From: a virus
Taxonomy: Duplodnaviria > Heunggongvirae > Uroviricota > Caudoviricetes
Length of the DNA: 64,000 nt
Direction: 5' to 3' (one strand)
IMG/VR virus record: IMGVR_UViG_3300010362_000014
Location: 10,740-74,739 of that record
Part shown: positions 10,705 to 51,120 of the stretch, piece after piece
How the letters are laid out: each line of letters opens with the position of its first letter
Position numbering within the stretch: position 1 is the first letter of the stretch
Notes under the pieces: model-generated
What the model was told of the DNA's origin: nothing
The model's input: the letters and a program-made list of their open reading frames with translations, nothing else
Databases searched by the model: none
Translations under genes and position numbers: made by a program

Positions 10705-10763
10705 GCAATCAATACTCTGGATAATCGTTTTCCTCGTCTTAGGGGGAAGTGTTGGATTAGTTA

Positions 10764-30172: not shown

Positions 30173-30496
30173 TATTATCCGAGGCGCGGATGTTTCGAAG
30201 TTCGTCTATTATGTTAGAACTTACCAAAGTAAATCCAAGCTCTTGCATTGTCTCAAATGCAATTGGGAAATCTTGAATCTGCTCATATGGGTTGGTAGTG
30301 GTCATCTATGGGATCCTCGTATATATGCCATGAGCGTATTACTTCTGGATGTCCGAGTTCGGAAATATCTATTTCACCCTTCTCTACATCCGCTCTATCA
30401 AGCTCCATGGCATCATTGATTGTTGTAATATTTTTGCTTTGATATACTTCGGAAGTTAAATCTGGAATATATACCACGATTCGTTGTTCAATAACT

Positions 30497-30892
30497 TTAA
30501 TCTTTAATGTCAAATTCGCCATCCTTAGCACCTAGCAGGAATGCCTCCCACTCGGCTTTGTTGAATTTTAATACAGGTCCGCTCGGGTCCTTACTGTCGC
30601 GCACCAATATAGCAAGTTCCTCAGGCCGATTAACTTCCACGCAACTAGCGCTATCAGCACTTGCTTCTGATTTTAACCAATCTCCACTAACCTGAAGACA
30701 CTCTCCGCCTGAATAACTAGATTTATTCCAGGCCCCCACTTCTACACAATTCCCATTACCGCCTGAATAACTAGATTTATTCCACACACCTATCTCCACA
30801 CAATCGCCAGGAACGCAGAAACTAGATTTTACCCAATCTACTTCTACGCAAGCTCCATTATCCGCTGAATAGCTGGATTTCCTAAAACTCAT
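30497..30892 (-). CDS. DUF397 (BldB-like) domain protein
   Basis: C-terminus SCVEVNRPEELAILVRDSKDPSGPVLKFNKAEWEAFLLGAKDGEFD matches the DUF397 consensus. The N-terminus holds 3 extra partial KSSYSGGNGNCVEV repeats. Confidence 0.65.
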   Translation of the reverse strand: MSFRKSSYSADNGACVEVDWVKSSFCVPGDCVEIGVWNKSSYSGGNGNCVEVGAWNKSSYSGGECLQVSGDWLKSEASADSASCVEVNRPEELAILVRDSKDPSGPVLKFNKAEWEAFLLGAKDGEFDIKD

Positions 30893-33852: not shown

Positions 33853-34723
33853 CTTGACTACGGTTCCAGTTCATTTGGAACCGTCGTACTCCATTTACAT
33901 AATCATTCCAGCCCTTGATATAGCAGAAAAAGTGCTTGAATGATTGTCTAGTCCTTATCGTTTTGTGTTGAGAGTTACGGATCATATATTCGCGAAGTGA
34001 GAAGATTGGATTGCCCTTGAGATTCTCAGGACTATCTTCGTATTCACCATTTTTAAGTTGGTCGATAAATTTTTCGTGTGGACCATCCGGTAGCGCCCTA
34101 TGGCATACGTGCATGGCCGCTACTGCGGATGATATAATCATCCCAACTCGTCCGACACCGTTCGCATCGTATAGATAATCGCCGAGATTTTCCTGTTGTG
34201 TAAGCTCACGAATATCGTGAGGTGTAATGAGTGCCCTATTCCATTGAGTAATCTCTGGGTAGTTATCGAATAGACTAACTATCCGGCCTGCTGCCCCCAA
34301 GGTTGTACCATTGCGGACTCCAGACATGGCAAGTATCTGACCGGTAGTGCGGTTTCGTCCGACATCAATATGATCAAAGACATCAGGCTGAAGTCCGCGA
34401 GTCACTAAAGTGGTAAATGTAATGTTGGGATCTGGTTCAAGTCCTCGAACAGTCTCGGTTGCTGCCATAACGAGTGCCATTAATCTTTGCTGACCATCGG
34501 TAAGATCGCCATTAATATCAAACCCGATGCCCTGTGGAGTTAATTTCCACTGGCCCCGCCGCATGTCAAAGGCATAACGCTGGATAGAAGTCATGCTGAT
34601 CGGACGGTTAGTACGTTCGGTATTATCGTAGGAAAAAAGTTTGTTATGCTCAAGATATTCAAGAGCTTTCTTCAGGCTGATTACCTCAACCCTTGTTTGA
34701 GTTTGCATCCTCACTGCTTTCAT
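33812..34723 (-). CDS. ParB-like nuclease domain protein
   Basis: GDLTDGQQRLMAL resembles the ParB/Srx DGxHR box. Confidence 0.5.
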   Translation of the reverse strand: MKAVRMQTQTRVEVISLKKALEYLEHNKLFSYDNTERTNRPISMTSIQRYAFDMRRGQWKLTPQGIGFDINGDLTDGQQRLMALVMAATETVRGLEPDPNITFTTLVTRGLQPDVFDHIDVGRNRTTGQILAMSGVRNGTTLGAAGRIVSLFDNYPEITQWNRALITPHDIRELTQQENLGDYLYDANGVGRVGMIISSAVAAMHVCHRALPDGPHEKFIDQLKNGEYEDSPENLKGNPIFSLREYMIRNSQHKTIRTRQSFKHFFCYIKGWNDYVNGVRRFQMNWNRSQGVIRPIGWAENAR

Positions 34724-34910
34724 ATATTTTTATAAGCCAATATATCTTAGGTCTAGTCATCCCGAATAACCTTGATAGATCGCTTGGGTTTGTACCTAGG
34801 CGAATTAATGATTTTAATGCTCTTCCCGCATCTATTCTAGCGTTTTCTATATCTCTTTCTAATCGCTGCAATCTATATACTGTCTCCCTATGTGTAGTCT
34901 GTTTATCCAT
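34686..34910 (-). CDS. small HTH DNA-binding protein
   Basis: LSRLFGMTRPKIYWLIK is helix-turn-helix-like. Confidence 0.3.
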   Translation of the reverse strand: MDKQTTHRETVYRLQRLERDIENARIDAGRALKSLIRLGTNPSDLSRLFGMTRPKIYWLIKIYESSEDANSNKG

Positions 34911-34914
34911 AGTA

Positions 34915-35439
34915 TCAGCTCACTGAGAATTCATTAGAAATCAAATTATTAATCTGTTCTAAATCCGTCGGAAAGTCTTCAGTGAGCTCATCTAAACTCT
35001 CATAAAATGGAACATTGAAACATTCCGAAACGAGTTTAGTTCCGTCTCGAATCCAAGTAAAATTCGGAGCAAGCGCAACCACTCTCGCCTTCTCCGCACG
35101 AAATCCGGATGTTCCAAGGATAATTCTTCCATAAGCTTCAATTACCCCGAATACAGGAATCCTTGTTGTTGGTATAATAGGCGGCATATACAGTCCATAC
35201 AATCCACATTTACATGCAAGTTCAGGAGCTAGAGTGTCATGATATAAACAACGTTCATAAAAATTCGATGTAGACCTATAATAGCGAGAATGACAATGCG
35301 CCAAATTTTCGCCTATGGACCATATATTAATGGGATATCCACCAATAGACATTAATTTATTGTCCCGCAAGAACCAGCTTCTATATCCTCTGAGTACCCC
35401 AGGAATGAGTTCTATTTCTTTATTGCTATATTCAGACAC
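34915..35439 (-). CDS. hypothetical protein, RGYR-W/GFRAE family paralog A
   Basis: Shares LxPGxLRGYRxW, CxCGxYGxY and ILGxSGFRAExA blocks with 37223..37972. Confidence 0.4.
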   Translation of the reverse strand: MSEYSNKEIELIPGVLRGYRSWFLRDNKLMSIGGYPINIWSIGENLAHCHSRYYRSTSNFYERCLYHDTLAPELACKCGLYGLYMPPIIPTTRIPVFGVIEAYGRIILGTSGFRAEKARVVALAPNFTWIRDGTKLVSECFNVPFYESLDELTEDFPTDLEQINNLISNEFSVS

Positions 35440-35685
35440 TAACAGGTTCCTTTTCCGTTTCAGGAACTACCGGCTCAGGGTCTTGAATGGGCTCAGGAAT
35501 CTCGATCGGTTCGAATTCCACCTCTTTGATGATTTCGCCTATATTCATTTCTTACCTCCATTATTATGAGAGCCATTGATATTATAGCGATATATACATA
35601 TGCAATCTTGATATACCAAGCATGGGCTGATAGTATACAAAAGATACTAAATCCTAATGCTAAAATGAATCCCATCATTTTAGCA

Positions 35686-36297
35686 TTAATGGAACCAATT
35701 ATAATAGTTTTCACGTTCCTCGAACCTTATGAACGTCGGTTGTGTGCCTTGTAACATCTGTTGGTGCCACATAAGCATTCTACCAACTCTACCATTACCA
35801 TCTATGAATGGATGAATTTTCTCAAATTCAATATGTAAAATTTTTGGATCTTCACCAGAATTGTACAACTTGATCCAGTCGTCCATAAGATCTGGAATAT
35901 CATTCGGATCTGCCACTCTGGATTGAGTCCCAGTTATATAAACCTTACACTTACGATATTGGCCTATTTCCGGTCCGTGAAGGAAATTAAGCATAATTAG
36001 GCGATGAACTCTTAGTATTATTTCTGTTGTTAGAGTCTTACGTATCCTAAGATAAAACCATGCATCTAGACTTTGATCAATTTCCTTAAGGGAAACAACT
36101 CCCTCAATCATATTAGAATGGCGAATAAGGCTTGCCATATCTGGACCGTTTGTCTTAATCGGCATCGACCTATAGCTTCCATCTGGATTGACAAATGCTC
36201 TTGTTGGCCGATGACAGCATGGCTTTACCCACAAGTTGAGATAATGCGAATATGCAAAACCGAAGCTTGGCTTTGCACAACTACACCATGAAGTCAT
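35686..36297 (-). CDS. Fic/Doc family protein
   Basis: Canonical Fic motif HPFIDGNGRVGR. Confidence 0.75.
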   Translation of the reverse strand: MTSWCSCAKPSFGFAYSHYLNLWVKPCCHRPTRAFVNPDGSYRSMPIKTNGPDMASLIRHSNMIEGVVSLKEIDQSLDAWFYLRIRKTLTTEIILRVHRLIMLNFLHGPEIGQYRKCKVYITGTQSRVADPNDIPDLMDDWIKLYNSGEDPKILHIEFEKIHPFIDGNGRVGRMLMWHQQMLQGTQPTFIRFEERENYYNWFH

Positions 36298-36565
36298 CTC
36301 TTTCCAAAAAATTTTCTAAGTAATTTCTGAGAGCTATTCCATCTGGGAGATCACCAATATCATACATTAGATTTTTCAATTTTTTAGCAGATATCCATCC
36401 CAGGTCATATTCTTCCGGAAAATAAATATCAGGTTCTATTAGAACTCTTACTTTCCGTTTACTCCAAAATCTCTTATATGTTAGTATAAGTATCCCTACG
36501 TTTTCTTTGGGTATTTCGTAACTTTTATGGAATAGGTCGTACCATATATACCTCATCCATTTCAT
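36281..36565 (-). CDS. small protein upstream of and overlapping the fic start (possible Fic partner)
   Basis: 17-nt overlap with the fic start codon region. 94 aa. Confidence 0.3.
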   Translation of the reverse strand: MKWMRYIWYDLFHKSYEIPKENVGILILTYKRFWSKRKVRVLIEPDIYFPEEYDLGWISAKKLKNLMYDIGDLPDGIALRNYLENFLERDDFMV

Positions 36566-36587
36566 TTTGCCTCCTATTTCTATCTTG

Positions 36588-36660
36588 CGCCCCTAGTAGG
36601 ACTCGAACCTACAGCCTACGGATTAGAAGTCCGTTGTTCTATCCCTTGAACTATAGAGGC
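36588..36660 (-). tRNA. tRNA-Arg (anticodon TCT)
   Basis: Hand-folded cloverleaf. Acceptor GCCTCTA/TAGGGGC, D stem GTTC/GAAC, anticodon stem ACGGA/TCCGT with loop CTTCTAA, T arm GTAGG-TTCGAGT-CCTAC. Confidence 0.75.
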
Positions 36661-36674
36661 ACTGAATCCATATT

Positions 36675-36968
36675 CTATCCTAACGTTATATTTGCTCCAT
36701 AATGACTACTAAGTTCTTCTTGATACATATCACGCTCACGTTCCATAGATTCCGCTAGCGCTTCGAAGTACTCTTCTTGTGTAATTATTCCCCTAGCCAT
36801 GAGGACTGCGACTAACGCCGAATGGTCCACCATTGCCGAATTTACACCAACTCTAAGATGCTTTGGCGATGTTTCTGCCCCATCAAGTTCCATCTTTGCT
36901 GTTACACCGGATTGCATCGCATGCAGAGCATCATGGTACCTTTGTATAGAGGATTCCATATCCGTCAT
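36675..36968 (-). CDS. hypothetical protein
   Basis: ORF. Confidence 0.3.
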   Translation of the reverse strand: MTDMESSIQRYHDALHAMQSGVTAKMELDGAETSPKHLRVGVNSAMVDHSALVAVLMARGIITQEEYFEALAESMERERDMYQEELSSHYGANITLG

Positions 36969-37222
36969 TCGCTCTCCTTCCCACCACCAGCATCAATGAT
37001 AAGCAATAGGTTATCAGGCTCGCCAAGCCTTTTCCACCAACTCTTCCTGATGTAAATTGTATCAACAACCGGATAAGTCTCATCATCTATGACGGCCTTA
37101 AACTGTACTGTATTCTTCGTTTCCTTCTGCCAAACCATAGTAACTTCTGCAGCACTTTTCATATCTAATCAATCCTTAGTTCCTTAGTTCCTTACATGCT
37201 ACAAGTACAATTCATTAGTTTC

Positions 37223-37972
37223 TTAATATGGTAGTCTATTAATCAATGGCATACGATATCCACAATTTCTACAAACAATACAAGAAACCGCCATCGTCGA
37301 TTCAATCTCTTTTTGTGATTGATACGACACCAAGCCACACCTACATTTGCGACTAATTATATCATGTTCGGACTCGTGTTTAGGTTCGGATAGAATCGCA
37401 TTGATATTTTGTAGAGGAAATTCCGTTTCTAAGTATCTGAGTCCCAGATAACACGGGACCTTATATAGCCCGGCAATATGCCGGAGTAGTGAACCTTGCG
37501 TATTATTACCACAAATGGCCGTAATTTTAGCATATTCGGCTCTGAATCCACTTTCACCTAATATTACCTTTCCCCACGCATCAAAGCATCCATATATTGC
37601 ATACGGGCTCCTACAATGCGCAAAAATATTAGTGGGATTATAAACACCATATACACCACAAGTGCAATCTATTGCAGGAGCAGGATGGTCAAAGTGTGGA
37701 TTATTACGATTCTTTCCAGAAGCGTACAAGCACCTAGCCTTTATTTTTGTAACTGGCCACTTAATCCGATAATCGTTGACAGACGTTAGATAGGAATATT
37801 CTCCCCATGAAGTATGATCCCATGGGATATGATCCCAATCCTGGGCATCCCAATAGGACTTCACATCAAGGTGTTGTAGCTTTGGCATCCATGCCCGATA
37901 TCCTCGTAGCTTGCCTGGGACTAATAATCTCTCTGGTCCGGTAAATGTCATTAGATATCCCTTAGATTTCAT
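37223..37972 (-). CDS. hypothetical protein, RGYR-W/GFRAE family paralog B with C-terminal zinc ribbon
   Basis: Paralog of 34915..35439, plus a C-terminal CRCG...CIVCRNCG. Confidence 0.4.
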   Translation of the reverse strand: MKSKGYLMTFTGPERLLVPGKLRGYRAWMPKLQHLDVKSYWDAQDWDHIPWDHTSWGEYSYLTSVNDYRIKWPVTKIKARCLYASGKNRNNPHFDHPAPAIDCTCGVYGVYNPTNIFAHCRSPYAIYGCFDAWGKVILGESGFRAEYAKITAICGNNTQGSLLRHIAGLYKVPCYLGLRYLETEFPLQNINAILSEPKHESEHDIISRKCRCGLVSYQSQKEIESTMAVSCIVCRNCGYRMPLINRLPY

Positions 37973-38396
37973 ATTTTTCTTTAAATCGGACCTGCTGGCC
38001 TCCCGTTACGCCTATTACCAAGCCCGTGATCGGTAAATTGGACTAAGTAACCAGCAGATCCTTTATTTTGAGAGGGGGAAATAATAGGTTAATCTAGAAT
38101 CCCCTACCATCCAGGGCGCCCGCCCAAAGTTTGCCTGTCAAGATTCGAACTTGAATTTTCAGATCCATGATCTCAGGCAAATACCTTAGACGCTGATCTT
38201 ATGTATAGAACATTCATTTTCCGGATCAAGCATGTCGATATATAGGCTACGCCCGGTTTCGTCATCTGGAATAAATACTATTGGACATATACACTTGGGA
38301 TTCTTAATTCTATAAATCATCTCTTGGACTTCATCGAGTCTATCGTGAATTTTATCGATATAATCTAATGAACTGTAATTAAATAAATCGAGAAAC

Positions 38397-38939
38397 CTAC
38401 GTAACCTTTGAAACATAATTTTCCATCGCTATCTCGAATTGTTCCGGAAGATCCCAACCTAACTCTATAAGTCTTCTTATTGCCTTAACTGTTGCGCCGG
38501 CGCCTTGACCGTCGAAAACAGCACTGTTCATTACGTAATCTAGGGCATCGGTATATCCGCGATCTATAACCAGGAACGGTAGCACATTATGAAGTATTAC
38601 TGCCATTGATGCGCCAGTCATTGTCCACTTAGATGTATTTACTATTCCGCCTTTGGCAAGAAATGGATATTCATCATGCATTGCCCATACATGCACATGA
38701 GGCTCGGGACAATGTTCGTTACATGCCCGCCGCATCCAATCCTTGGTAGCTCTCGACTCAGAAATCTCCGGTTTTGTTCCAGTAAGCGACGAGAGTTTGC
38801 GAACCACGGCAAGCTCTTTAGTTTGAACATATAAAGTTAACTGTCTTGTATTACGTGTTTTATTTCGTTTTTCGACAATTCTTCCTTTAAGGTCGATGAC
38901 TCCTGCCATCCACCCAAGCTGTTGAGCTGGAATACTCAT
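38397..38939 (-). CDS. hypothetical protein
   Basis: ORF. Weak resemblance to LAGLIDADG (GWMAGVIDLKG) is not relied on. Confidence 0.25.
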   Translation of the reverse strand: MSIPAQQLGWMAGVIDLKGRIVEKRNKTRNTRQLTLYVQTKELAVVRKLSSLTGTKPEISESRATKDWMRRACNEHCPEPHVHVWAMHDEYPFLAKGGIVNTSKWTMTGASMAVILHNVLPFLVIDRGYTDALDYVMNSAVFDGQGAGATVKAIRRLIELGWDLPEQFEIAMENYVSKVT

Positions 38940-39477
38940 GTCTTCTCAATCTTATTTTCCGTCTTCCAAGAATTGAAGGTATCACTGGATACCCTTCTGG
39001 GTATCATTACATCACCATATACATACATGAGCAGCCAATACTCACCGCACTCACACTGCCAAATAGTTCTATCTTCTCTATTGCTGATTCCTGATACATC
39101 GCACTTATGCAATTTTCCTATTATCTTACCGCTCATTTGCCCATCTTCTTTAACAGGACCTGTGATAGTATAACTTTCAGGCGATTCTTTTTCTCATCAT
39201 CATCGAGATGAATGCCAGAATTATCTATAGCGTATGATAATGCTAGATCCAATAACTGCAAGTCCTGGTAATCCAGATTCGCAAGCTTGTATCGTTTACC
39301 GATCATTCATGCCTCGATCTACTTTTCATTTTTTCTTGTATTTTCACTATCCGATCTAGATCTACAGGTAGCGTAGATCTAAACTCTACCGGAGCATAGT
39401 TGAAATAGAAGTCTATGATACTTACGAGTGCCCTTACATCATCTTTGGTTAAACTTAAACTCAATCTATCGGTCATG

Positions 39478-39551
39478 TGGGACAGGTGAGACTTGAACTC
39501 ACGATTACCATTTTATAAGAATGGGGCCTTAACCATCTTGGCCACTGTCCC
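39478..39551 (-). tRNA. tRNA-Ile (anticodon TAT)
   Basis: Hand-folded. Acceptor GGGACAG/CTGTCCC, anticodon stem CCATT/AATGG with loop CTTATAA, T arm GTGAG-TTCAAGT-CTCAC. Confidence 0.65.
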
Positions 39552-39862
39552 TGGGCTAGCCTAAGCTAGCTTTTAATCATATAAATGCTTGTATTTCCGT
39601 CTAACTTGGCGTCTAATCTTACGCTTAAGTCTAAAAACTCTAAACTTTCGTAACAGGTAGTATCCATATGCTACTATAATTATCATAGTAGCAACAAATA
39701 CAGCCTGGAGTACGCTCACTTACGCTTCTTCGATTTTGACAAAAAACTCGGTGCCATCTTGTGTTTCCACCGCGATCTCGTTTTCACTAATGATTTCAAC
39801 AGTGTTGAGTTGATTTGAATCAAGTAGAAGACTCTCCAATTCCCTAAGTAGCTGCTTTAACG

Positions 39863-40342
39863 TCATCTTAGACAACCAATCTGTTCGACCTTCTCAGATA
39901 GCGTAGGAGCCTGTCTCGGAACATCAGGTGGCTTGACTAGCTTTGCCTTGAAAGCATTTGCAAGTTCGGCATTGTATCTAGCCTGTATGCTATTGTAGTT
40001 TGCTTCTCGCGCTAATGTTTGCGAAACTCGCTGTACTTTGATAGCCGGATCTGTCTCTGCATCTTCGGCCTTCTTAGCCGAACACCAATTCAGCGCCGAT
40101 GCCGTCAATGACTTATCGTAGGTGTAAGCAAAATCCCATTCAGAACTGACATGCTGTGGACTTATGATGTTTGCACCCGTGCTAAACCAACCACTAAGTA
40201 ATCCGATTACGGTAAATATTATACCAAAAATCAGAAATACTCCAATAGTTTTAAAGAGTAATCCAATTGGAGTCTGACGACGAAACCACCCAACTTCAGA
40301 CGAGTACTCATCGTCATGCATTTGTCCGAATGTTCTACCCAC
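39863..40342 (-). CDS. membrane protein
   Basis: N-terminal TM helix (IGVFLIFGIIFTVIGLLSGWF). Confidence 0.35.
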   Translation of the reverse strand: MGRTFGQMHDDEYSSEVGWFRRQTPIGLLFKTIGVFLIFGIIFTVIGLLSGWFSTGANIISPQHVSSEWDFAYTYDKSLTASALNWCSAKKAEDAETDPAIKVQRVSQTLAREANYNSIQARYNAELANAFKAKLVKPPDVPRQAPTLSEKVEQIGCLR

Positions 40343-40988
40343 TATGCACCAACCCTAGCAGTGCCGCCGCAGCAGGACATGGTGAGTCTGGCCTTGGATC
40401 TTTTGCCCTACACTTCTTTAATTCCGTCTGAACTTGTGCATCAATCGTATGCAAATCTACACCAGATGATACGGTAATATCAATCTTTGTAGACTGTTTT
40501 TGAATCACATCTGGAACATTGGTGCAATACATTTCTAGATTTGTAAAATCGTGATAGTTCCCGGCAGGGTCATATCCATATCTATATTCAGAACTTGTTC
40601 CATACATGCCTTGATCGTCAGGCAGTTCAGGATTGTACTTATATAGATAAGTGTTGTTATCTCCGTTATCGACCTCAGTAGTTGGCTTAGGCCGCTTATT
40701 GCTTGATGTTAACTTTCCAGCAATTGGCACTGTAAATGCTGCTGCATTTGGATTAGATGGATATGCAGTACACCAAATTAGTGCTGATGGATCATCAGAT
40801 TGAATGAGACGTGCGTTGTAATTGTGACCTTCGACATCATTCTTTGGTATATAATTCTTTCGATTATCTGCTACGTCCTTCGCTGTTGGGTTTTTAACAG
40901 TGTTATCCGATGTGCAAGCGCAACTAACCGTCAATAAAATTGGGATAGATGCTACTGCCACAATTTTCATCAATCTCGCAATGTTCAA
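40335..40988 (-). CDS. putative lipoprotein
   Basis: Signal peptide with a lipobox-like LTVSC(AC). Confidence 0.4.
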   Translation of the reverse strand: MNIARLMKIVAVASIPILLTVSCACTSDNTVKNPTAKDVADNRKNYIPKNDVEGHNYNARLIQSDDPSALIWCTAYPSNPNAAAFTVPIAGKLTSSNKRPKPTTEVDNGDNNTYLYKYNPELPDDQGMYGTSSEYRYGYDPAGNYHDFTNLEMYCTNVPDVIQKQSTKIDITVSSGVDLHTIDAQVQTELKKCRAKDPRPDSPCPAAAALLGLVHSG

Positions 40989-40991
40989 GTT

Positions 40992-41912
40992 CTATCCTTT
41001 TGTCGTTGGTACGTTCACTAATCCACTATTCATCATACAAAGACCGGGCGCAATTCCCATCTCCCGAGAATATTCAATACACTTGTTCTGGACATATTCG
41101 GGTGTTAGAACCGGACGCAGTTTGTCCGATACTGCCTTTTCCTTGTCAGCATTCAATCTCTGCTGATCAAGAATTCTCGATTGTAGAACAACATCCTGGA
41201 ATTTCTTGATGTTCTCTTCAGTCTTGGCGTCATGATGCACAATGGGAATAGCAACTGTATAAATTTTAATGCCAAATTGCTCAACTGCCTCAGACAGCCG
41301 CCGCTTCATGTCCTCTGCAAGTTTAGCACCATCGAACGTAGTTTGTCCAGTACGAATGTCAACTTGGGCCAATGGGTTATAAGTTGCAAAAGTAGCATTT
41401 AGGGCATTTTGAATTTCTAGATCTACAAAGTTTGCCTTAAGGTTATTAAAATCTCCCTTATATGTCTTATACAAAATCGGGGCCTGATCGCCTACTACCT
41501 GCCACTGAATCCGATTTTCTACACATGCAGTGGCAAGAGAACCGATACGAACTACCGTACAGCCATGATCCCAATCACCAATATGGTTTTCAGTGATCCT
41601 AGACGCATCAAAGTCAGCGACTCGCTGCCACGGCCATACAAACTTTAGTCCATTACCTGTTACGCGACCTGTTGGAGCGCTAAAACTAGTAACAATTCCA
41701 ATGTTGTTGACCGGTACTTGATAAGCACATGCAAAGAATAGAAAAATTACCGCGATGAATCCCAAACCTAATGATACAATTTTGCTGGTAGATTTCCATG
41801 GAATATCGTCTCTACGACTTCTTTCTTCATCTGGCTTCGCCTTAATCGCAACACTTACAAAAGCTACGGCTAAAATAAGAAAGAATATGAATGCAATGAA
41901 TTCAAATGACAT
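40992..41912 (-). CDS. SPFH/band-7 (prohibitin/HflK-like) domain membrane protein
   Basis: N-terminal TM segments followed by VPVNNIGIVTSFSAPTGRVTGNGLKFVWPWQRV, which is SPFH-like. Confidence 0.55.
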   Translation of the reverse strand: MSFEFIAFIFFLILAVAFVSVAIKAKPDEERSRRDDIPWKSTSKIVSLGLGFIAVIFLFFACAYQVPVNNIGIVTSFSAPTGRVTGNGLKFVWPWQRVADFDASRITENHIGDWDHGCTVVRIGSLATACVENRIQWQVVGDQAPILYKTYKGDFNNLKANFVDLEIQNALNATFATYNPLAQVDIRTGQTTFDGAKLAEDMKRRLSEAVEQFGIKIYTVAIPIVHHDAKTEENIKKFQDVVLQSRILDQQRLNADKEKAVSDKLRPVLTPEYVQNKCIEYSREMGIAPGLCMMNSGLVNVPTTKG

Positions 41913-42263
41913 TTGTGGTCGTTTTCTCCTTATTGTATTATAGCCCGATTTGACTATAGTAGGCCGCCAGGGTATTGATCCCTGTTCTCTAGATTAAAAG
42001 TCTAGAGCATCACCTTAATGCTTGCGGCCCAATCAAATTATGAGTTAAATGGATTTACGTACCCATTCGGGTCCTGCGTCATTAATATCATATTCGATTT
42101 TTCCTTCGACGCCGGTTATGCCTCTGAAAGCCGCTGTAGCAGGTTCATCTGGCCTATCCATTGTATTATGAAATCCAGCATTACGCTCGATTCTAACGTA
42201 TTCTTCTTTGGGAACTTCCATCCATTCCAAATCGGTTGAAATTTTTATAAAATATTTATTCAT

Positions 42264-42985
42264 TTATTCTTCTCGTTCCTTCTTGTGCTCTTCTTCAAAG
42301 AAGTCTACTACCGCTGCACCTGTACTCTGCCCACTAGCATATGATTTTGTGGCAGACCTTAACGTTGTAAATGTTGTATTATATGATGCAGCACTTCCGG
42401 TTGTACCAACGGTATTTGCTGCACCAACCAGGCCAACACCTTGACTCCAAGCATCTGCCCCGGCACCTAGATAAACGAATGTCCACTTATCGGTTGCCTG
42501 AAGCTCACTAATCAACTTGCGAACCGTATCAAAGTCATATTCCTGACTTGCATTTTCCAAGCCGTCTGTCTGGATAACAACAAGAACTTTATCATCGTCT
42601 TGTAATACGGTAGATTTACGGAATTCATTTATCGTTTTGCCTACCGCATCGAATAATGCGGTAAAACCGGCGGAACATAATTACTATTATTTAATTCAGG
42701 CACTTCAGCTGGAACCTTGTTCATGCATAAAGTTACAAAATCAGTATCAAATAACGTTGCCGTAACTAAGCATTCAGTTTGGTCCTCAATAAGACCTTTA
42801 ATATATGAATTGAAGCCACCTCGAACATCCTTCGCCACAGGCGACATGGATCCTGACATATCAGTGATGGTTAAAATATAGGTTGTCATATTATCTCCAT
42901 TCAATATTTTCCTTAGATGGAAAGAATGTGGGCGATCGTGTTTCCAGTTCACGAGTATCCAAAATATCTTCTTCCCAACGATCAA
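42264..42985 (-). pseudogene. von Willebrand factor A domain gene split into two ORFs (42641..42985 N-terminal part with the MIDAS motif DMSGSM, and 42264..42560 C-terminal part)
   Basis: The MIDAS motif is in the upstream ORF and the rest of the vWA-like fold in the downstream ORF. The two are separated by an 80-nt frame break. Confidence 0.4.
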
Positions 42986-43632
42986 CGATTTTTCGAATTA
43001 TTTCCATATCGACAACGCGAATAGCTCCTCGAAATCCGTCATAGTTAACATCGAAGACTTGACGAACGAATTTCATACGTGCTTCATTATCCATCTTTAT
43101 TCTCTTCTAATTTGGATTCGTATACAACTTCCGGAAGGGGCTCACGCGCTTCGTACATAATTTATTCCGTTATCGAGCCACATATCAAAGTGAATCGCCT
43201 GACCATCCGTCAAGTAGCAGCACAGCCATATACGATCGTTATCCATCCGTTCCATACGGAATGTCTCAACATAGTTTATAACGACATCATCGAGGCCGAG
43301 ATCATCATACCTTAGCGCAATTCGATAGTCATCACTCATCTTTATCCTTATTCGGATCTAATGAGTCGCTAGATGGTATTTTTGTAGTATTCACTTCTTG
43401 CCATATCTCAATCAGATGTCTAGCTTCGTCAATGGCAATCAAATGGTGATCAGGGGATCCTGCTTCATCACACAGGTCATAGTAGATCCGTAACATTAAT
43501 GGTAATAGCTTGTCTTGTGCTCGAAATACTACAACTGGTTCGTCATCCGCAATGGTTCCGCGTTCTGTTGTTACGCTTCCATATTTCGAATCAATTGCCA
43601 CTACTTTCCTCATTTCTCTTAGTACGTGTTTG

Positions 43633-43705
43633 TACCCCTGACAGGATTTGAACCTGCGACATGCGATTTAGGAAACCGCTGCTCTATCCACTGAGCTACA
43701 GAGGT
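43633..43705 (-). tRNA. tRNA-Arg (anticodon CCT)
   Basis: Hand-folded. Acceptor ACCTCTG/CAGGGGT, D arm GCTC-AGTGGATA-GAGC, anticodon stem GCGGT/ATCGC with loop TTCCTAA, T arm GCAGG-TTCAAAT-CCTGT. Confidence 0.75.
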
Positions 43706-43886
43706 AGTGCTAGAATGAATCTCATCGAGGTGGCACCTGTATCAGAATGCGCAACGAGGCTTACGATCCATTCTAGCTTTAGAAGCAAAATCTTAGCCTT
43801 TACTACAAGAGCAACCGAATACAAGACAATCGAAATTGCTTCTAGCTTCAATCGTCCGTTTTATGTATCTATATCGTTTAGATTGC

Positions 43887-43945
43887 TACATATGATGAGG
43901 TTATAACTACATATGATGAGGTTATAACTACATATGATGAGGTTC
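43887..43945. repeat. tandem repeat, about 2.8 x 21 bp (ctacatatgatgaggttataa)
   Basis: Read directly. Overlaps the stop codon of 43928..44305. Confidence 0.75.
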
Positions 43946-44305
43946 TAGATAGAAACGCCTCTTTGGTAGAGAACTTCCTATATGATTACATTTGTAGAAC
44001 GATTTTGCATTACAGCATGGGCGAATTCCATCAATCATGGTAGTACCATGTTCGTCAATAACAGAAATCTTGACGATATAATTTCCACCTTGACTTATTA
44101 TTATAGGTAGATTCTTGTTGTTCTTAGCTCTGCGCTCGGCGGCTTGGGTTAGTTTTAATTCATGACCCGTCGGCTCACCACGGGTACGGGCAGTTTTATT
44201 AGCGGCCTCACGAAGCTCCTGAGCGGCCTTGCGCTGTGCCTTACGAGCCGCAGTGTGCGCACGTGCCTGCGCCGCGTCCTTCTTTTTCGGTGGATTATTT
44301 GCCAT
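43928..44305 (-). CDS. basic (K/R/A-rich) protein, possible DNA-binding
   Basis: The N-terminal 60 aa are highly basic. Confidence 0.3.
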   Translation of the reverse strand: MANNPPKKKDAAQARAHTAARKAQRKAAQELREAANKTARTRGEPTGHELKLTQAAERRAKNNKNLPIIISQGGNYIVKISVIDEHGTTMIDGIRPCCNAKSFYKCNHIGSSLPKRRFYLEPHHM

Positions 44306-44766
44306 ATATGATCAATTCCTTTCAAGAATTATAGTTTTCTATTGATTCGTAATATTATTAAACCAATTAATACTCCTAAGATAAAGGCTATTGCATCAAT
44401 AACTATTCGTTCTAGAGTCATTTTATTACCGGCTCTCATAATCCGGCTAATTGGCTTTGGCTGCAGGAAGTCAATCCAACCTTATCCTTTTCGTGTATGG
44501 CAATCTGGCTAACTATCTCCATCGCTAACCTTTCCAGTCGTAAAATATACATTCTACGAAATGTATATTCTAGCCTGTCAGGCAATCTCTTTCGCCGCCA
44601 AGTAGTTGCCTAATCACCTTGATCTCCGCCAATCTCGGAGGACAAATCCTCTTTAGAAGTTAAAACATTACCCCCCTAGAAGATAAATCTTCCAGACTGT
44701 AACTGCGACGCATATGTTATTTATGCCTACACTATTAAGACTGACATATATTATTTAAGCATTTAT

Positions 44767-45249
44767 TTATGTCCTAATGCCTAATTTTTCTAATTCTATC
44801 AGATACTGCTGACGTACTGCTCGTGCGATCACGAAAATTTCTTCTTCATACTCCGGAAGGAGAGTTACATCTTCGAATTTCGGATCACTTCGCGATTCAA
44901 GAGCCGCCAACGATGTTGTATTGCTAAGATTCACGGCCACGTGTGGCACACCGTCCGGAATGAAAATAGACTCATATTTCCCATGAATCATGGAAATCCA
45001 TTTTTTATCATCAAAAATTAATGTTGCTGCTGTGCCCTCTAAACAGGTAACTATAATTTCACTATGCTCATGAACATGAGCCTTAGATACACCCCCAGGT
45101 TGCATAATGATTAACCCCTGAGAGATAAATTCAGATCCAGATGTTTCTTCAGTAATTAAAGGGTAAACCTTTTGCCCCTGTGGAGATGTAACCGGTTGAA
45201 TCTTGTGTGCTGAAATTATAGTTACTCGTTTAGTCATGGTTTTATCCAA
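44767..45249 (-). CDS. cupin-domain protein
   Basis: G(x)5HxH(x)3E ... G ... H ... N pattern (QPGGVSKAHVHEHSE ... PDGVPHVAVN). Confidence 0.5.
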   Translation of the reverse strand: MDKTMTKRVTIISAHKIQPVTSPQGQKVYPLITEETSGSEFISQGLIIMQPGGVSKAHVHEHSEIIVTCLEGTAATLIFDDKKWISMIHGKYESIFIPDGVPHVAVNLSNTTSLAALESRSDPKFEDVTLLPEYEEEIFVIARAVRQQYLIELEKLGIRT

Positions 45250-45638
45250 TCCGTTAAAGTTGCTAATTAGCTCATTCGTCGTCTACATTCATCTTCACCC
45301 AAATCGGATTCCAATATACACGATCCCATTGAAGATTACCATCTTCGTCATAACCGCGGAGAGTTATGCGTTTATTTTTGGCTCTCCATCTAATATTATA
45401 CGCGGAAAGGTTGACGACTTCTAGAACAACTACAGATTTGTAAAAAAGCTTAACTCTCATATTTACTTATACTCCACAATCGGTACAAAGATTGGTATCA
45501 AATTCTAAATCCTATCTTTTTCACCTTAAGCTATTACTCACGGTCAGCCCCCGGAGTTGTTGTTAAACTTCTCCATAGACCTAATAGCACCAGCCGGCTT
45601 TTGTATAAGGTCCGAAAAGATAGGGAGAAACGTGGCAG

Positions 45639-45721
45639 CGGAAGATAAAGGAATCGAACCCTCATGTTGTTAACATGGCACGGTTTTCAAGACCGATTGA
45701 GCACCTTGCTCGCTATCTTCC
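45639..45721 (-). tRNA. tRNA-Ser (anticodon TGA), type II
   Basis: Acceptor GGAAGAT/ATCTTCC with a G discriminator, D stem GAGC/GCTC, anticodon stem CGGT/ACCG with loop CTTGAAA, long variable arm CATGTT-AAC-AACATG, and a TTCGATT T loop. Confidence 0.6.
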
Positions 45722-45988
45722 TAATATGGTTCTTCATATCGTGGTATTATATCCTGAAATTGTATGGACAGAATATTAGACAAAATATTCTCCACTATTT
45801 TAGCTTACTAATAATTTCTGTCATATTCCTTCCCTAATAAATTTCTCATACTCTTTGGCTGCATCTAGTACCTTATTCATAAGCTGAATCGAATTCAGCT
45901 GATTCGCATTTCCAGATAGTGCTATTGCAGCTACCCTTAACGCGATAGCTCTAATTTTTTGATCTGTCATATCTAATCCAATCCAATT

Positions 45989-46050
45989 ATATTTATTCGT
46001 GATTTAGTCATAATCTTCCTATATTTATTCGTGATTTAATCATAATCTTC
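45989..46050. repeat. 30-bp direct repeat, 2 copies with 1 mismatch (atatttattcgtgatttaRtcataatcttc)
   Basis: Read directly. Intergenic, downstream of 46036..46329. Confidence 0.7.
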
Positions 46051-46329
46051 AAATCCTGATGTGAACTCATCAGGATTTACTTTTATAGCTCGACAAATTT
46101 TTACCCAAAACTCATTTGCATGTTTCGTACATAAATCTCGATGATGTTTATAGTTCACGCATAGCTCCGGATTTAAGTAAATAATAAGCTCTTGTCGATC
46201 ATCATTATCATCATATGGATCATCAGATATATCAGTACCACATACATCACATTTATATGTGGCTTCCTTGACATAAATAGTCTCAACTTTCTCGGAAATT
46301 CTGATCTGCCGACTCATACTATTCCTCAA
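46036..46329 (-). CDS. small zinc-finger protein
   Basis: CDVCG...C...H...C. Confidence 0.3.
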   Translation of the reverse strand: MRNSMSRQIRISEKVETIYVKEATYKCDVCGTDISDDPYDDNDDRQELIIYLNPELCVNYKHHRDLCTKHANEFWVKICRAIKVNPDEFTSGFEDYD

Positions 46330-46645
46330 GATTATTTGTTCGATCCGTATGTCTATCCACCCATGACCAGAAAAGGTTAGTATTACTTATGAGATTCAAT
46401 CCCCAATGACCATTCTTCATGTATCTCCACTGGGGTCTAGTTTCCGTTTTATGAGTTTTAGAATCCCATTTATATAATCTGCCATATCTAGGAATGTTAT
46501 TTAATATGCCAATTAAGTTGACAATTTTATCTTGAGTCCGTATACTACATTTTTCTTCAATTTCGTTCGCAACATATGTGATTATCGGTTGAGTTAGCTT
46601 ACGGGGAGTTCTTAATATTATACTTAATATACGATTGAAATTCAT
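46319..46645 (-). CDS. hypothetical protein
   Basis: ORF. Confidence 0.25.
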   Translation of the reverse strand: MNFNRILSIILRTPRKLTQPIITYVANEIEEKCSIRTQDKIVNLIGILNNIPRYGRLYKWDSKTHKTETRPQWRYMKNGHWGLNLISNTNLFWSWVDRHTDRTNNLEE

Positions 46646-47565
46646 CTCAATCTCGATCTAATCGGCAAGCAAGCCTCACCCTGCTCAGATATCAATCTAG
46701 ACATTGCCGATCTTTTAATCTTTGCACATCCGTTTATTCCCCAACCTGGTCCCCACGAATTATGTAAGATATAGCAATCTTCCTTGAGATTGATACCCTT
46801 GGCCAAAATACAATGTCCGCCGGCCAATGATCCTGTGGGCTTTATATAGCCATTAATATCTGGCTTGAACATTCCCGTATACCAATTTATGCCAAGAACT
46901 ACTGGACCATGGTATGCAATTGCAGATGCAATCTCTTGTTCGGTATCTGCCCAGTGATACGACAAATAAAAGCTTAATGATGTCAAGACTTTGGCACCAG
47001 CAAGTACAGAGGTGCCTTCATAGAAGGGCACGGCGCCGGGATATGCACCGCCTGGCCATTCATCATTTTGTTGGAATTGAAAATAAAGCGCATTATTCTT
47101 AATAAGATTTGATACCGTATCAAATTTGACCAGGACTGGTCTAGCTAGAAGCTCATGTGAAAATCCATATTGGACACATGTGCCTTCATTACCTTGGTCT
47201 AGATGATATTGGTTTACTTTACTAAAACCAACCGACCAAGTGTAAGACCTAAGTGGAGCTGCAACATCTATGATAGCCGATATTCTGAAATTCCGGCTAC
47301 GAATGTCGGATTGCAAGATTCTACCAAGACGAGGATCAGAAACTACAGATCCATCCTTCAGTCTGGTTCCAGTTCTAGCCATTCTGACCAAGATTCTATC
47401 AAATAGGACCAAGAATTCATATAATATAAAGTGACTACCCCAACGATTGGGGGACTCAGCCTGGGGACAACTGGTATAATCGTTGGGGTAGTCACGTCTT
47501 GTTGTTACTATTCGTAATCTGTCCAATTTGATATGATATTCTGGAAGAATTAATATTCCATGCAC
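46642..47565 (-). CDS. papain-like cysteine peptidase (C1 family-like)
   Basis: Order of triad segments: NEGTCVQYGFSH (Cys) ... GGHCILAKG (His) ... ILHNSWGPGWGINGCAKI (Asn-Ser-Trp-Gly...Trp-Gly). Confidence 0.5.
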   Translation of the reverse strand: MHGILILPEYHIKLDRLRIVTTRRDYPNDYTSCPQAESPNRWGSHFILYEFLVLFDRILVRMARTGTRLKDGSVVSDPRLGRILQSDIRSRNFRISAIIDVAAPLRSYTWSVGFSKVNQYHLDQGNEGTCVQYGFSHELLARPVLVKFDTVSNLIKNNALYFQFQQNDEWPGGAYPGAVPFYEGTSVLAGAKVLTSLSFYLSYHWADTEQEIASAIAYHGPVVLGINWYTGMFKPDINGYIKPTGSLAGGHCILAKGINLKEDCYILHNSWGPGWGINGCAKIKRSAMSRLISEQGEACLPIRSRLR

Positions 47566-47729
47566 GACATTTGGAAGTATAGCGAGATCATCGCGAAGAG
47601 CACCTTGTTGATATATTGAGACATCGTTTAATCTTTACCATCTAATTAAAGTGTATCATTTGATTAAGACAGGTTTACTAGAGCTCAATCCTTTTCACTC
47701 AGTAACACGCTCTCCCTCGCTATACTTCG

Positions 47730-47801
47730 AGACCCTGACAGGATTTGAACCCGCATAAAGACGATTTGCAATCGTCTGCCTATCCATTCGGCCACAGGAT
47801 C
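47730..47801 (-). tRNA. tRNA-Cys (anticodon GCA)
   Basis: Acceptor GATCCTG/CAGGGTC with discriminator U, D arm GCC-GAATGGATA-GGC, anticodon stem GACGA/TCGTC with loop TTGCAAA, and a TTCAAAT T loop. Confidence 0.65.
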
Positions 47802-48145
47802 ATAGTTGTCCGGCAGATCTAACTCCCAGAAATAAATCTTATTTCTGATCATGACTAGTCTTGGCTTAGGAGGGTGCTTTAACCAGACAACGTTGTACTA
47901 CCACATTGATGTACTCAGACCGCAGACCAGCGAGGGCCTACGTCTAATATTGTCCATTTTATTGTTCGTTATCCGTTTTATTATCCACAATTTCTGATGT
48001 TATTCTAGCATAATTCTGGAATTGACTATCTGTCAGGGTTCTAATCTTTTTACCAAGTTCGTTTTGCCGTCTAGTTAGTAGATTTTCTGCTCGAATAACA
48101 AGTCTGAAAGCCTCAACGGCATTTGCAACTTCAGGATCCATCATG

Positions 48146-48229
48146 TGCGGACGACGAGACTTGAACTCGTATGCTCTCTAGAGCGGAAACTTTTAAGGTT
48201 TCTGTGTATGCCGATTCCACCACGCCCGC
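48146..48229 (-). tRNA. tRNA-Leu (anticodon TAA), type II (bldA-like specificity)
   Basis: Acceptor GCGGGCG/CGTCCGC with discriminator A, anticodon stem GAAAC/GTTTC with loop CTTAAAA, variable arm GCTCT-AGA-GAGC, and T arm ACGAG-TTCAAGT-CTCGT. Confidence 0.7.
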
Positions 48230-48710
48230 AGTTATATATTTTTACTGGCTTTGGCGGGGAGGAGCCGATACCCTTCGACCCCTCCCCTTTTTCTCGGATA
48301 AGAAACTATGATTTTCTACCGAAAATTGGGTCAGTATCCCACCAACGCCGTTTAAAGATGCAAATCAATCTTTAAGACTTTGCGTACTGCCATTATACGA
48401 TTTCCCCATGGGTATAGTCTTTAGAGTATATGAATATAATTTTGCAGGAATGAATATAATTTTGGAGGGGAAACCAGGATTCGAACCTGGACACAAATGT
48501 CACTGTATGCATCTGCTCGATTTGGTGTTCGTGCCTTTGTTACCACGAGACTAGAGCGATAATCTCAATCTTACATGGATTTATTTTGCCAATTAAACTA
48601 CTGCGGCACGACTTAAAGCCGCAGGATGGATTCGAACCACCATCTAATCCTGATGAGTTAGACTGATAATGAGTCTAACTATGTAACCCGTGCGCTCTAA
48701 TCACGGGAGT

Positions 48711-49448
48711 CTATGCGAAAAGATATCCAAAGACTACGTTAGATACCTTGACATTATCAACTTCTGTTGAATTTGCTCGTTCTCTGGCTACCTTTACGGC
48801 ATCGGTAAGCTTACGTACTCGTTCAAGTAATTCACTTGAACGAGTAGCCGGAATAGCACCCGAGAATCGTGTGGTATCCCAATAGCCGACGAGCACGTCT
48901 TCTTGATAGGGCTGAACCTGAGCCGGATGTTTTTCGGTCGCCTCATAGAGCACAAAAGCTTTCGGTACTTTCTTGCTTTTAACAGTAGTAGTTACCGGGG
49001 AGCGGTATGTTCCGGTAGTAGAATCAAATTCCCATTCAACCGAAGGATCAAGAAGTGGAAGCTTACTAACGAATGTGCTAATATCAACCAGCTTCTTTTC
49101 CAAGAAGAGAAGATATGTCACCGGCACATTTGCTAATAAAACGGTGCCGTCGATGATAACATCGGCTTTAGCTGCTGTATTACCAGTCTCTAAGGTGGCC
49201 GTCAAATCGAAAAGTCGAGAAAGTGACTTTGATGCTCTATCTAAAAGATTATCTACCGTTATCTGAACCGCATTGCCCTCATTTGGATAGACATCGCCCT
49301 CGTCATCCTTACGACGATAGACTCTGGTCAGTCCGCTTAGTGGTTCTGCCCGCTGTGAATCGTGGTGAACTTTGGTAAATGATGTTTCTGCTCTGTTCTT
49401 TTCACCCTTAACTAGGGCGATAACCTGATTAAGTAAGGCCATTCTCAT
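48711..49448 (-). CDS. hypothetical protein
   Basis: 245-aa ORF. Confidence 0.35.
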   Translation of the reverse strand: MRMALLNQVIALVKGEKNRAETSFTKVHHDSQRAEPLSGLTRVYRRKDDEGDVYPNEGNAVQITVDNLLDRASKSLSRLFDLTATLETGNTAAKADVIIDGTVLLANVPVTYLLFLEKKLVDISTFVSKLPLLDPSVEWEFDSTTGTYRSPVTTTVKSKKVPKAFVLYEATEKHPAQVQPYQEDVLVGYWDTTRFSGAIPATRSSELLERVRKLTDAVKVARERANSTEVDNVKVSNVVFGYLFA

Positions 49449-49654
49449 CCTTATCCAATAACAATTTTAAATTAATCGTATGGTACATCGTAGCCTCGCC
49501 GGGAATCGAACCCGGTCTTAACGCAGACCGACAGAGCGCAAAGCTAACCAATACTCAACAAGGCCAAGCGGCTAATATAGTGGCAGGCAGTCCCACTCAT
49601 CCTGCACTTTGGGCAAGGGCTAATTAGGAATCCCCTCGCACTATATTAGCCTCG

Positions 49655-49728
49655 TGGCTGGTAAGAGAATCGAACTCCTAACGTCCACCGTTCATAAACG
49701 GATTTGACGCCTCACCCAATATCCAGCC
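49655..49728 (-). tRNA. tRNA-like gene, anticodon arm non-canonical (possible tRNA pseudogene or unusual tRNA)
   Basis: Acceptor GGCTGGA/ACCAGCC, D stem TTGG/TCAA and T arm AGGAG-TTCGATT-CTCTT are fine. The anticodon region CCGTT-TATGA-AACGG gives a 5-nt loop. Confidence 0.3.
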
Positions 49729-49841
49729 TGTTCTCGGGTAGCGAGTATAACGCTGGTGCCGGCCAAAATTCCCATACCCGAATAGGGGACCCTCATGAAT
49801 TTCACATATTTCCCCACCTTCTCAGATGAGAGTTCTATATA

Positions 49842-50258
49842 TTACAGATTTGCAACAAGTCCATTAGTTGTATCGGTCACGGTAATATCTACAAAACTAA
49901 CCGTCATGGGAGGATCGCAGCTAGGACTAAGTTCCGCAGTTAAAGTCAAGGTAAAGTCCGCTTTTCCGTTTTGTACCGGGAAATCGCCTTCTGCTGTAAG
50001 ATCTTCTTTGTTAACTGCTTTAGGATGGTTACCGCCACCGTTTATACATAATGCCGTAGCGCTTACTACAACATGAATTTGTTCTTCATCGCCGAGACCT
50101 GCTTCTTTGCCGACCACAGTCAATGTGGTGTCTGTTTGTGTTGCTGAGAAAGCCGAGTCGATGAAATGTGGACTTCCAGCGAACGCCGGGATTGGAACGA
50201 GCAGGACCATGATTATACCAGAAATCATGATTAGTCCGACTCGACCGATACCTTTCAT
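49842..50258 (-). CDS. secreted/exported protein with N-terminal signal peptide
   Basis: MKGIGRVGLIMISGIIMVLLVPIPAFA followed by a T/S-rich beta-like sequence. Confidence 0.4.
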   Translation of the reverse strand: MKGIGRVGLIMISGIIMVLLVPIPAFAGSPHFIDSAFSATQTDTTLTVVGKEAGLGDEEQIHVVVSATALCINGGGNHPKAVNKEDLTAEGDFPVQNGKADFTLTLTAELSPSCDPPMTVSFVDITVTDTTNGLVANL

Positions 50259-50296
50259 AGAGCCTCCATATAGTATATGAAGGAGAAATCCTTCGT

Positions 50297-50370
50297 GGCG
50301 GGTAACGGATTTGAACCGCTGATCTTCGGCTTATGAGGCCGACGGGAACGACCGAGCTTCCCCAACCCGC
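50297..50370 (-). tRNA. tRNA-Met (anticodon CAT; initiator, elongator or Ile-lysidine type not resolved)
   Basis: The 3' half GTCGGCCTCATAAGCCGAAGATCAGCGGTTCAAATCCGTTACCCGCCA closely parallels bacterial tRNA-fMet. Anticodon stem TCGGC/GCCGA with loop CTCATAA, D stem GGAA/TTCC. End coordinates are +/-2 nt. Confidence 0.6.
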
Positions 50371-50494
50371 TTTGAGGTAGTCAATTAGATTGCCTACCGA
50401 ACTGCGCCACCCCGCTTTGGATTAATTCACGGTATTATTTATACTATAATCTTTGATTAATATTATGTGATTGAATCGAATACTTATATTTGCT

Positions 50495-50749
50495 TTACCA
50501 CCATAGCCACTGCGCGATATGACGGTGTTGATAAGATGGCGTTTCTATATCAGTTTCACTGTTTGCTCTATAATCCTTGATTGCATTTACTACATCTATG
50601 CGCACCTTCGCACGCTGCGGGCCGTACCATACGTGATTTATGTACCATTTCGGTGGGCTTCGAAACCAATGATATGGATAGACTTCTCTGTTTCTAAGAC
50701 GATATGGTACATCTTTGTCTGTTCTGGACATAACGTAGGCTCCTTTCAT
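50495..50749 (-). CDS. hypothetical protein
   Basis: ORF. Confidence 0.25.
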   Translation of the reverse strand: MKGAYVMSRTDKDVPYRLRNREVYPYHWFRSPPKWYINHVWYGPQRAKVRIDVVNAIKDYRANSETDIETPSYQHRHIAQWLWW

Positions 50750-50764
50750 GAACCTTACGTCATA

Positions 50765-51109: not shown

Positions 51110-51120
51110 ATAAAACCCCT

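Follow-up and report, generated by a model that had tools for sequence, protein, structure and literature searches.

We analysed a 64,000-nucleotide (nt) stretch of a virus of the Caudoviricetes (IMG/VR record IMGVR_UViG_3300010362_000014, positions 10,740 to 74,739; hereafter the window) in which a Fic-domain gene lies between two genes, parA and parB, that encode members of a Cys/His protein family. It corresponds, in reverse complement, to positions 31-64030 of a metagenomic contig of 88.6 kb (European Nucleotide Archive ERZ27257142, k141_588889). As a whole, the region is best explained as a set of accessory genes that is located in the early/replication arm of a low-GC siphovirus and falls into at least three separate units instead of one cassette. 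Among them would be a class II Fic enzyme and a module in which a micropeptide gene is coupled to parA, which may encode a metal-binding enzyme with an ADP-ribosyltransferase (ART)-like fold that uses nicotinamide adenine dinucleotide (NAD). We put the probability of this joint explanation at roughly 0.45, somewhat below even odds. Three genes carry the argument:

37223..37972 (minus strand): parB, orphan copy of the Cys/His family, 249 amino acids (aa); likely true start Met8, 37951
35432..35548 (minus strand): micropeptide gene, 38 aa plus stop: MNIGEIIKEVEFEPIEIPEPIQDPEPVVPETEKEPVSV
34915..35439 (minus strand): parA, micropeptide-linked copy of the Cys/His family, 174 aa, GTG start

A Cys/His protein family of actinophages and Actinomycetota

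The products of parA and parB are true paralogs (BLASTP E = 4e-23, 32% identity) that have the motifs LxPGxLRGYRxW, CxCGxYG and ILGxSGFRAE in common, as the original prediction, made from the DNA letters, had proposed. It could place them in no known family, and indeed neither matched anything in Pfam, PHROGs, NCBIfam, PADLOC or PDB sequences. No third copy was found in the window. For parB, the gene caller and the ribosome-binding-site context favour Met8 (37951) as the start, and the core comprises LRGYRAW (37889-37909), C81 (37730-37732), H96..C103xC105GxY108 (37649-37687) and GFRAE (37535-37549). A Cys-rich C-terminal extension (CRC...CIVCRNC, 37223-37357) is absent from parA and most relatives; judging by a weak UPF0547 match (E = 0.62), it is likely an extra zinc ribbon.

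A word-indexed database search with a family protein returned only the protein itself; a profile search run exhaustively over 1.84 billion cluster representatives gave 2,751 members at E <= 1e-3, including 379 at E <= 1e-10. When 120 members were compared with Pfam, PHROGs, NCBIfam and PADLOC, one stray NCBIfam match was all that appeared, and the family profile matched no PDB sequence. No published account of the family was found with the literature queries that could be framed. Conservation was assessed over 150 sequences, and residue numbers are those of parB. Near-invariant are L22-R-G-Y-R26-x-W28, W72, A79-x-C81, H96-x-x-P99, C103-x-C105-G-x-Y108, G128, G134, G139, G142-F-R-A145 and P186. 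Glu occupies position 146 in 82 of the 150 sequences, and Gln does so in 58. The rare substitutions at the Cys/His positions are Cys to His, and His to Asp, Glu, Asn or Ser. Because these changes suit metal ligands and not a nucleophile, the positions are read as a C-H-C-C metal site, and the domain is predicted to bind metal via C81, H96, C103 and C105.

Phage genomes carry one to four family copies, highly diverged even between sister phages. Family members are also encoded by the Streptomyces phages BRock and GiJojo. In high-GC phage contigs, tandem overlapping copies stand behind one micropeptide gene, four of them in L007 (5509-8157) and two in L003 (5887-7142; L numbers denote fetched loci). 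The members P0122, P0150, P0151 and P0056 bear an unrelated ~140-aa N-terminal extension (MDLGxLYVAP...) with no Pfam match. Cellular members were found in metagenome-assembled genomes (MAGs) of Nocardioidaceae and other Actinomycetota, in a Mycobacteriales MAG and in Geodermatophilus pulveris. Their chromosomal neighbourhoods are unrelated and, besides the micropeptide, have no conserved neighbour. At their C-terminus the cellular members (L013/L017, L027, L031) have a hydrophobic tail resembling two membrane helices; the phage copies are without it.

The family could instead be a non-catalytic, fast-evolving, zinc-stabilized binding protein, such as a phage product that inhibits a defence protein or some host factor, with the micropeptide as a structural co-subunit and the cellular copies domesticated or derived from prophages. 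Its orthologs do diverge much faster than neighbouring genes, they occur in one to four tandem copies and among early accessory genes, and Glu/Gln variation at position 146 would be unusual for an essential catalytic residue. However, some 20 positions, including a ligand-pocket-like Arg and Tyr and Gly-rich turns, are near-invariant over 150 very diverged sequences, and the cellular loci show no prophage context. We consider such a binding protein quite unlikely.

A micropeptide coupled to the family

When the sequence preceding the family members was inspected in every fetched locus, a small open reading frame (ORF) came to light that overlaps the start codon of the member. The encoded micropeptide begins with M(D/G/N)IGxExxxVxFEP and continues in a Pro/Glu/Val/Ala-rich tail (25% Pro, 19% Glu). 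The window copy, which the contig gene caller called too, has GGAGG 5 nt before its ATG and overlaps the GTG of parA by 8 nt. The micropeptide is present in L002-L009, L011, L012, L014 and all cellular loci, and absent upstream of parB and of the downstream copies in tandem arrays. At phage and cellular loci whose neighbours are unrelated, it overlaps the enzyme gene by 4-8 nt, and a Shine-Dalgarno sequence precedes nearly all copies.

With a profile of 16 micropeptides, 781 database proteins were found at E <= 0.01 (median 40 aa), each of them carrying a hypothetical-protein annotation; the micropeptide is not represented in Pfam or NCBIfam. For three independently chosen examples the next gene encoded a family member in every case, with a 4-nt overlap and hidden Markov model E values of 1e-42 to 1e-51. 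Over a GC range of 41-77% among the loci, each of the four synonymous codons occurs at the invariant Gly, Pro and Val residues, so that the conservation is at the protein level.

The pair has the layout of a type II toxin-antitoxin (TA) system: two small, adjacent, co-directional and coupled genes in variable contexts. Unlike the partners in ART-toxin TA modules (DarTG, and the RES-Xre pairs MbcT/MbcA and ParT/ParS), the micropeptide has only ~40 aa and neither a DNA-binding nor a macro domain. Moreover, conservation is far higher in its N-terminus than in the enzyme, an unusual situation for an antitoxin.

The micropeptide also has a pattern like the leader and core of a ribosomally synthesized and post-translationally modified peptide (RiPP). 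The family would then be a metal-dependent enzyme that modifies or cleaves peptides, and the micropeptide its RiPP-like precursor substrate with a Pro/Glu-rich core. Consistent with this are a conserved 16-residue N-terminus with a hypervariable tail, encoded directly upstream of and coupled to the enzyme, the invariant Cys/His residues, and the apparent membrane anchoring of the cellular enzymes, which would suit export. Against it, the tails contain few modifiable Cys, Ser or Thr residues, known RiPP families gave no match to the enzyme, and its conserved neighbours include neither a transporter or protease nor a known RiPP enzyme. A single micropeptide also stands with several tandem enzyme copies, and the fold search described below ranks ART above peptidase or RiPP-enzyme folds. 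A RiPP-like pair thus appears unlikely.

Structural comparison with DUF7666 and ADP-ribosyltransferases

The AlphaFold2 model of parB has a predicted local distance difference test score of 78.7. A fold search with this model gave the ART superfamily as the best and only consistent structural match, with Tpt1 at the top. Foldseek against viral models returned family members first and then DUF7666 proteins (probability 0.82-0.98, E 9e-3 to 0.2). A DUF7666 consensus, made from seven retrieved proteins, shares Cys...His-x6-Cys-x-(S/C)-G-F-(H/Y)-A and the next hairpin with the family; hhalign produced the same alignment with E = 0.0021 but a probability of only 13.6%. One DUF7666 protein has been annotated as an ART toxin with a small upstream antitoxin, as a prediction and not from experiment (PMC7354433). 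DUF7666 proteins (ES18 gp53, Acinetobacter phage fLi-Aba02 Gp30c, PspYZU05_55) are, like the window family, products of phage early/accessory genes. The window family differs in an insert and in two additional elements, an LRGYRxW strand at the N-terminus and an FPPxDV helix region at the C-terminus, whereas DUF7666 proteins have repeat-rich C-termini, no micropeptide, and hosts among the Proteobacteria and Firmicutes instead of the Actinomycetota. In the repeat-rich C-terminal half of the DUF7666 gene of Vibrio phage 1.185.O, the depositors annotated 'CRISPR spacers' (L038 1569-1786), which are probably an artefact of NTGxxSAAS coding repeats.

As in the ART superfamily (Tpt1/KptA, BC2332-like proteins, DarT, Rhs ART toxins, PARPs), the conserved Arg, Tyr and Glu/Gln of the family would fall on successive strands in the order of the triad. 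These candidate triad residues are conserved to 97% (R26), 99% (Y108) and 93% (E/Q146). The G-x-Y-(A/G) strand resembles the G-x-Y motif of H-Y-E clade ARTs. The canonical triads (H-Y-E, R-S-E, H-H-h) are absent, and the candidate R26/Y108/E-or-Q146 is known from sequence order; none of the 120 members matched an ART Pfam family at E <= 10, no PDB sequence matched, and the Pfam model of DUF7666 (PF24703) found 0 of the 120 even at E <= 10. Taken together, the Foldseek and hhalign results, the motif likeness to DUF7666 and the ART-toxin annotation favour an ART-like fold as the best available reading, membership of the superfamily not being established.

Alt, ModA and ModB, the paralogous ARTs of phage T4, offer a parallel: parA and parB are likewise diverged paralogs, putative ARTs encoded among early genes and presumed to modify host factors. 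However, there is no detectable sequence relationship between them and the family, and T4 is without a micropeptide partner.

Proposed mechanism

In the explanation that we prefer, parB would be a first unit, an orphan copy of the fast-evolving Cys/His family. A second would contain ORFans, a tRNA-Arg gene, a 94-aa ORFan and Fic, and would end at a hairpin. The third would be a conserved functional module, in which a translated gene for the 38-aa micropeptide and parA are coupled in translation; such a pair recurs in many actinophages, and in Actinomycetota chromosomes it forms a stand-alone operon of two genes. In the pocket of the enzyme, R26 on strand 1, Y108 on the G-x-Y strand and E/Q146, where the strand following the G-x-x-G turn begins, would take the NAD-binding/catalytic triad positions. 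If the fold is ART-like with the triad positions filled in this way, use of NAD+ would follow, and the enzyme may modify a host protein or nucleic acid with it. For the micropeptide we infer one of two roles. Its N-terminal motif may dock on the invariant surface of the enzyme, making it a cognate, antitoxin-like inhibitor, or it may be the acceptor substrate through its Glu-rich tail. The extra phage copies, such as parB, and the tandem arrays would share the micropeptide or dispense with it.

A more far-reaching proposal is that the pair constitutes an undescribed two-component system, widespread in Actinomycetota and their phages, in which a zinc-bearing, highly divergent ART-like enzyme is switched by, or covalently modifies, a dedicated peptide of ~40 residues, for example by ADP-ribosylation of the Glu-rich tail or through peptide-gated toxin activity. 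Phages would have captured and amplified the enzyme for host takeover or counter-defence. We advance this tentatively, and as a whole it is doubtful.

The Fic enzyme and its neighbours

The remaining features of the region and its flank, all on the minus strand, are:

36965..37162 (minus strand): 65-aa ORFan; no Pfam, PHROG or PADLOC match and no homolog in related loci
36675..36968 (minus strand): 97-aa ORFan; strong Shine-Dalgarno sequence
36587..36660 (minus strand): tRNA-Arg(TCT), outermost of the 11 phage tRNA genes
36281..36565 (minus strand): 94-aa ORFan; strong Shine-Dalgarno sequence AGGAGG; overlaps the Fic start by 17 nt
35686..36297 (minus strand): Fic, 203 aa; CxC domain at residues 1-44 (36166-36297) and predicted class II Fic core
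35654..35689 (minus strand): hairpin, starting on the Fic stop codon and followed by a partly U-rich tail
35493..35714 (minus strand): 73-aa hydrophobic ORF, doubtful; overlaps the micropeptide gene by 56 nt
34686..34910 (minus strand): 74-aa small protein, probably helix-turn-helix; homologs in L002, L008, L009 and L014
33812..34723 (minus strand): 303-aa protein, phrog_5931, which we label ParB-like

The Fic gene itself is ordinary. Its product carries the Fic motif reported earlier for this ORF (HPFIDGNGRVGR, residues 162-173, 35779-35814) and matches Pfam Fic PF02661 with E = 7e-19 and 68.9 bits (cutoff 24). The motif fits the AMPylation-competent signature HxFx(D/E)GNGRxxR (PMC3667792). 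In class I Fic proteins the inhibitory helix is located on a separate antitoxin, and in classes II and III it is in cis, at the N- and the C-terminus respectively (PMC3667792). Examination for the inhibitory motif (S/T)xxxE(G/N), which had been suggested as a check, located it in the Fic chain as SNMIEG (residues 61-66, 36100-36117), ~100 residues before the catalytic His. It is kept as SNLIE(G/N/D) in four orthologs of related phages, and a cis inhibitory motif is present in 71 of 80 metagenomic relatives. Since SNMIEG is in cis and N-terminal to the core, the window Fic is assigned to class II and not to class I. The nearest solved structures are the class II Fic of C. difficile, FICD and SoFic (PDB matches down to 4e-12), and the PADLOC models SoFic and PDC-S04 are matched as well. 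We predict an autoinhibited class II AMP-transferase, whose activity would need relief of the inhibition by Glu65. Precedents among Fic targets are GyrB, ParE and EF-Tu. It is like other class II Fics (SoFic, C. difficile Fic 4x2c/4x2e, FICD) in its Fic domain, catalytic loop and N-terminal inhibitory motif, but differs from them in a very small core (~159 aa), in being phage-encoded and in an N-terminal Cys-rich fusion of 44 residues.

This Cys-rich domain (MTSWCSC...LWVKPCCHRPTR) has a counterpart in the sister phages L008, L009 and L014, where the gene overlapping the Fic start encodes a conserved ~100-aa Cys-rich protein, here called the CxC protein. Its N-terminus is rich in Cys (KPWCNCHTTGKW...LWVHxRCxKPS), and its tail is acidic. 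In L002 the CxC gene is located one gene further upstream. The separate CxC genes are:

L008 4271-4576
L009 4881-5240
L014 6327-6641

The N-terminus of the window Fic aligns with the CxC protein at every invariant position. Its score against the CxC profile was reached by 1 of 2,000 shuffles, and the combined CxC motif occurs in a single one of 1,870 window ORFs, the Fic ORF. From these comparisons we conclude that the window Fic joins the CxC domain to Fic in a gene fusion, a Rosetta-stone event, and that the conserved companion of this Fic clade is the CxC element and not the 94-aa ORF. The fusion also speaks for Met1 as the Fic start. The CxC domain may contribute targeting or regulation, to which, for this small phage Fic clade, the fusion is a Rosetta-stone clue.

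The 94-aa ORF and the organization of the region

The original prediction had described the 94-aa ORF and Fic as a toxin-antitoxin-like or effector-chaperone-like pair, bracketed by the paralogs in what could be one host-manipulation or anti-defence cassette. The 17-nt overlap of the two ORFs (36281-36565 and 35686-36297) is real, and an independent caller, run on the source contig, predicts the same two genes; the CxC homology backs Met1 for the start of Fic, and tRNA-Arg(TCT) is indeed present between the paralogs. Fic-type proteins are known to act in TA systems and phage defence (PMC5651007; PADLOC SoFic match). L002 repeats the arrangement, with a family member on either side of Fic, the upstream copy being the best match of parB.

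However, the inhibitory motif is in Fic itself and missing from the proposed partner. The 94-aa ORF matched nothing in Pfam, PHROGs, PADLOC or PDB and has no homolog in any related or orthologous locus, where unrelated genes take its place; by these comparisons it is a lineage-specific ORFan. Overlaps are the local norm: adjacent genes in this part of the contig overlap at 23 of 47 junctions, by at least 10 nt at 12 of them. Because so many junctions overlap, 17 nt is no signal of coupling. A class I Fic with an antitoxin in trans was likewise rejected, the 94-aa ORF being neither conserved nor a carrier of the inhibitory motif.

The bracket, for its part, reduces to a gene order conserved within one lineage. 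Fic adjoins a family member only in the phages that share the ParB-like gene, p74, p102 and p192 (the window, L002, L008, L009 and L014), all of low GC (41-43%). Family members without Fic are found in other phages and at all cellular loci, and neither the family nor the micropeptide nor the CxC element occurs within 3 kb of related small Fic genes (0 of 80 loci). Fic is also parted from the parA unit by the hairpin, whose stem of 14-15 bp is perfect (free energy -21.5 kcal/mol) and which is probably a terminator or attenuator between Fic and the micropeptide-parA unit. Since the hairpin falls within the 73-aa hydrophobic ORF, that ORF is doubtful; it is not conserved in orthologous loci. Together these data largely refute the antitoxin cassette, which we regard as very unlikely. 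A host-manipulation or anti-defence role for individual genes is possible.

The 74-aa protein gene comes after the family member in every phage of the window lineage, and the ParB-like protein is the best-conserved syntenic marker of that lineage. The window phage (40992-41912, minus strand) and its relative L014 (1458-2474) also have in common a conserved Band_7 (SPFH) membrane protein, encoded upstream of the region.

The phage and its host

The window phage is of siphovirus type and encodes a tail tube, tape measure and Dit, as well as DNA polymerase A, a DUF3987 primase-helicase, AAA_24, PDDEXK, SNF2 and a holin. Its GC content is ~41%, and it has distant matches to Streptomyces phages only. 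Small proteins of DUF397 type, a domain typical of Streptomyces, are encoded by 41% GC phages (L002 1661-1849; window about 30300-30700, L025 3787-4182). Because of the DUF397 gene, the distant matches confined to Streptomyces phages and the distribution of the Cys/His and micropeptide families, the host is probably a member of the Actinomycetota, despite the GC mismatch. The 11 tRNA genes are dispersed among small ORFs (36587-51665, minus strand), and most of their anticodons read A/U-ending codons (TCT, TAT, TTT, TAA, TGA, TGT), which fits a tRNA set that compensates a 41% GC phage for a high-GC actinobacterial host. In one tRNA call (49654-49728, 'tRNA-???') the anticodon loop is abnormal, with two bases. 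The phage further encodes an RNA ligase (PF09414; 57867-58508, minus strand) and DeoC (about 60391-61209, minus strand), and another phage contig with the micropeptide module, L028 (803-1225), encodes HAD_PNKP and RlaP. With Tpt1 as the top fold match, RNA-repair genes in the vicinity of tRNA-rich regions may merit attention.

Biological significance

The value of the region lies in the Cys/His family beside Fic, which has thousands of diverged members, no curated family and no structure, and in the micropeptide, whose motif M-x-I-G-x-E-x-x-x-V-x-F-E-P is sharply conserved and tightly coupled to the family in actinobacterial chromosomes and actinophages. At best, family and micropeptide represent an uncurated, widespread two-gene module with a very divergent ART-like variant as its enzyme. 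If the prediction of an ART-like, metal-binding protein is true, the family would add a new branch, one with a peptide partner, to the NAD-dependent modification enzymes. It would then bear on phage-host conflict in hosts of the Streptomyces, Nocardioides and Mycobacteriales type, and on the biology of the small proteins commonly overlooked by annotation pipelines.

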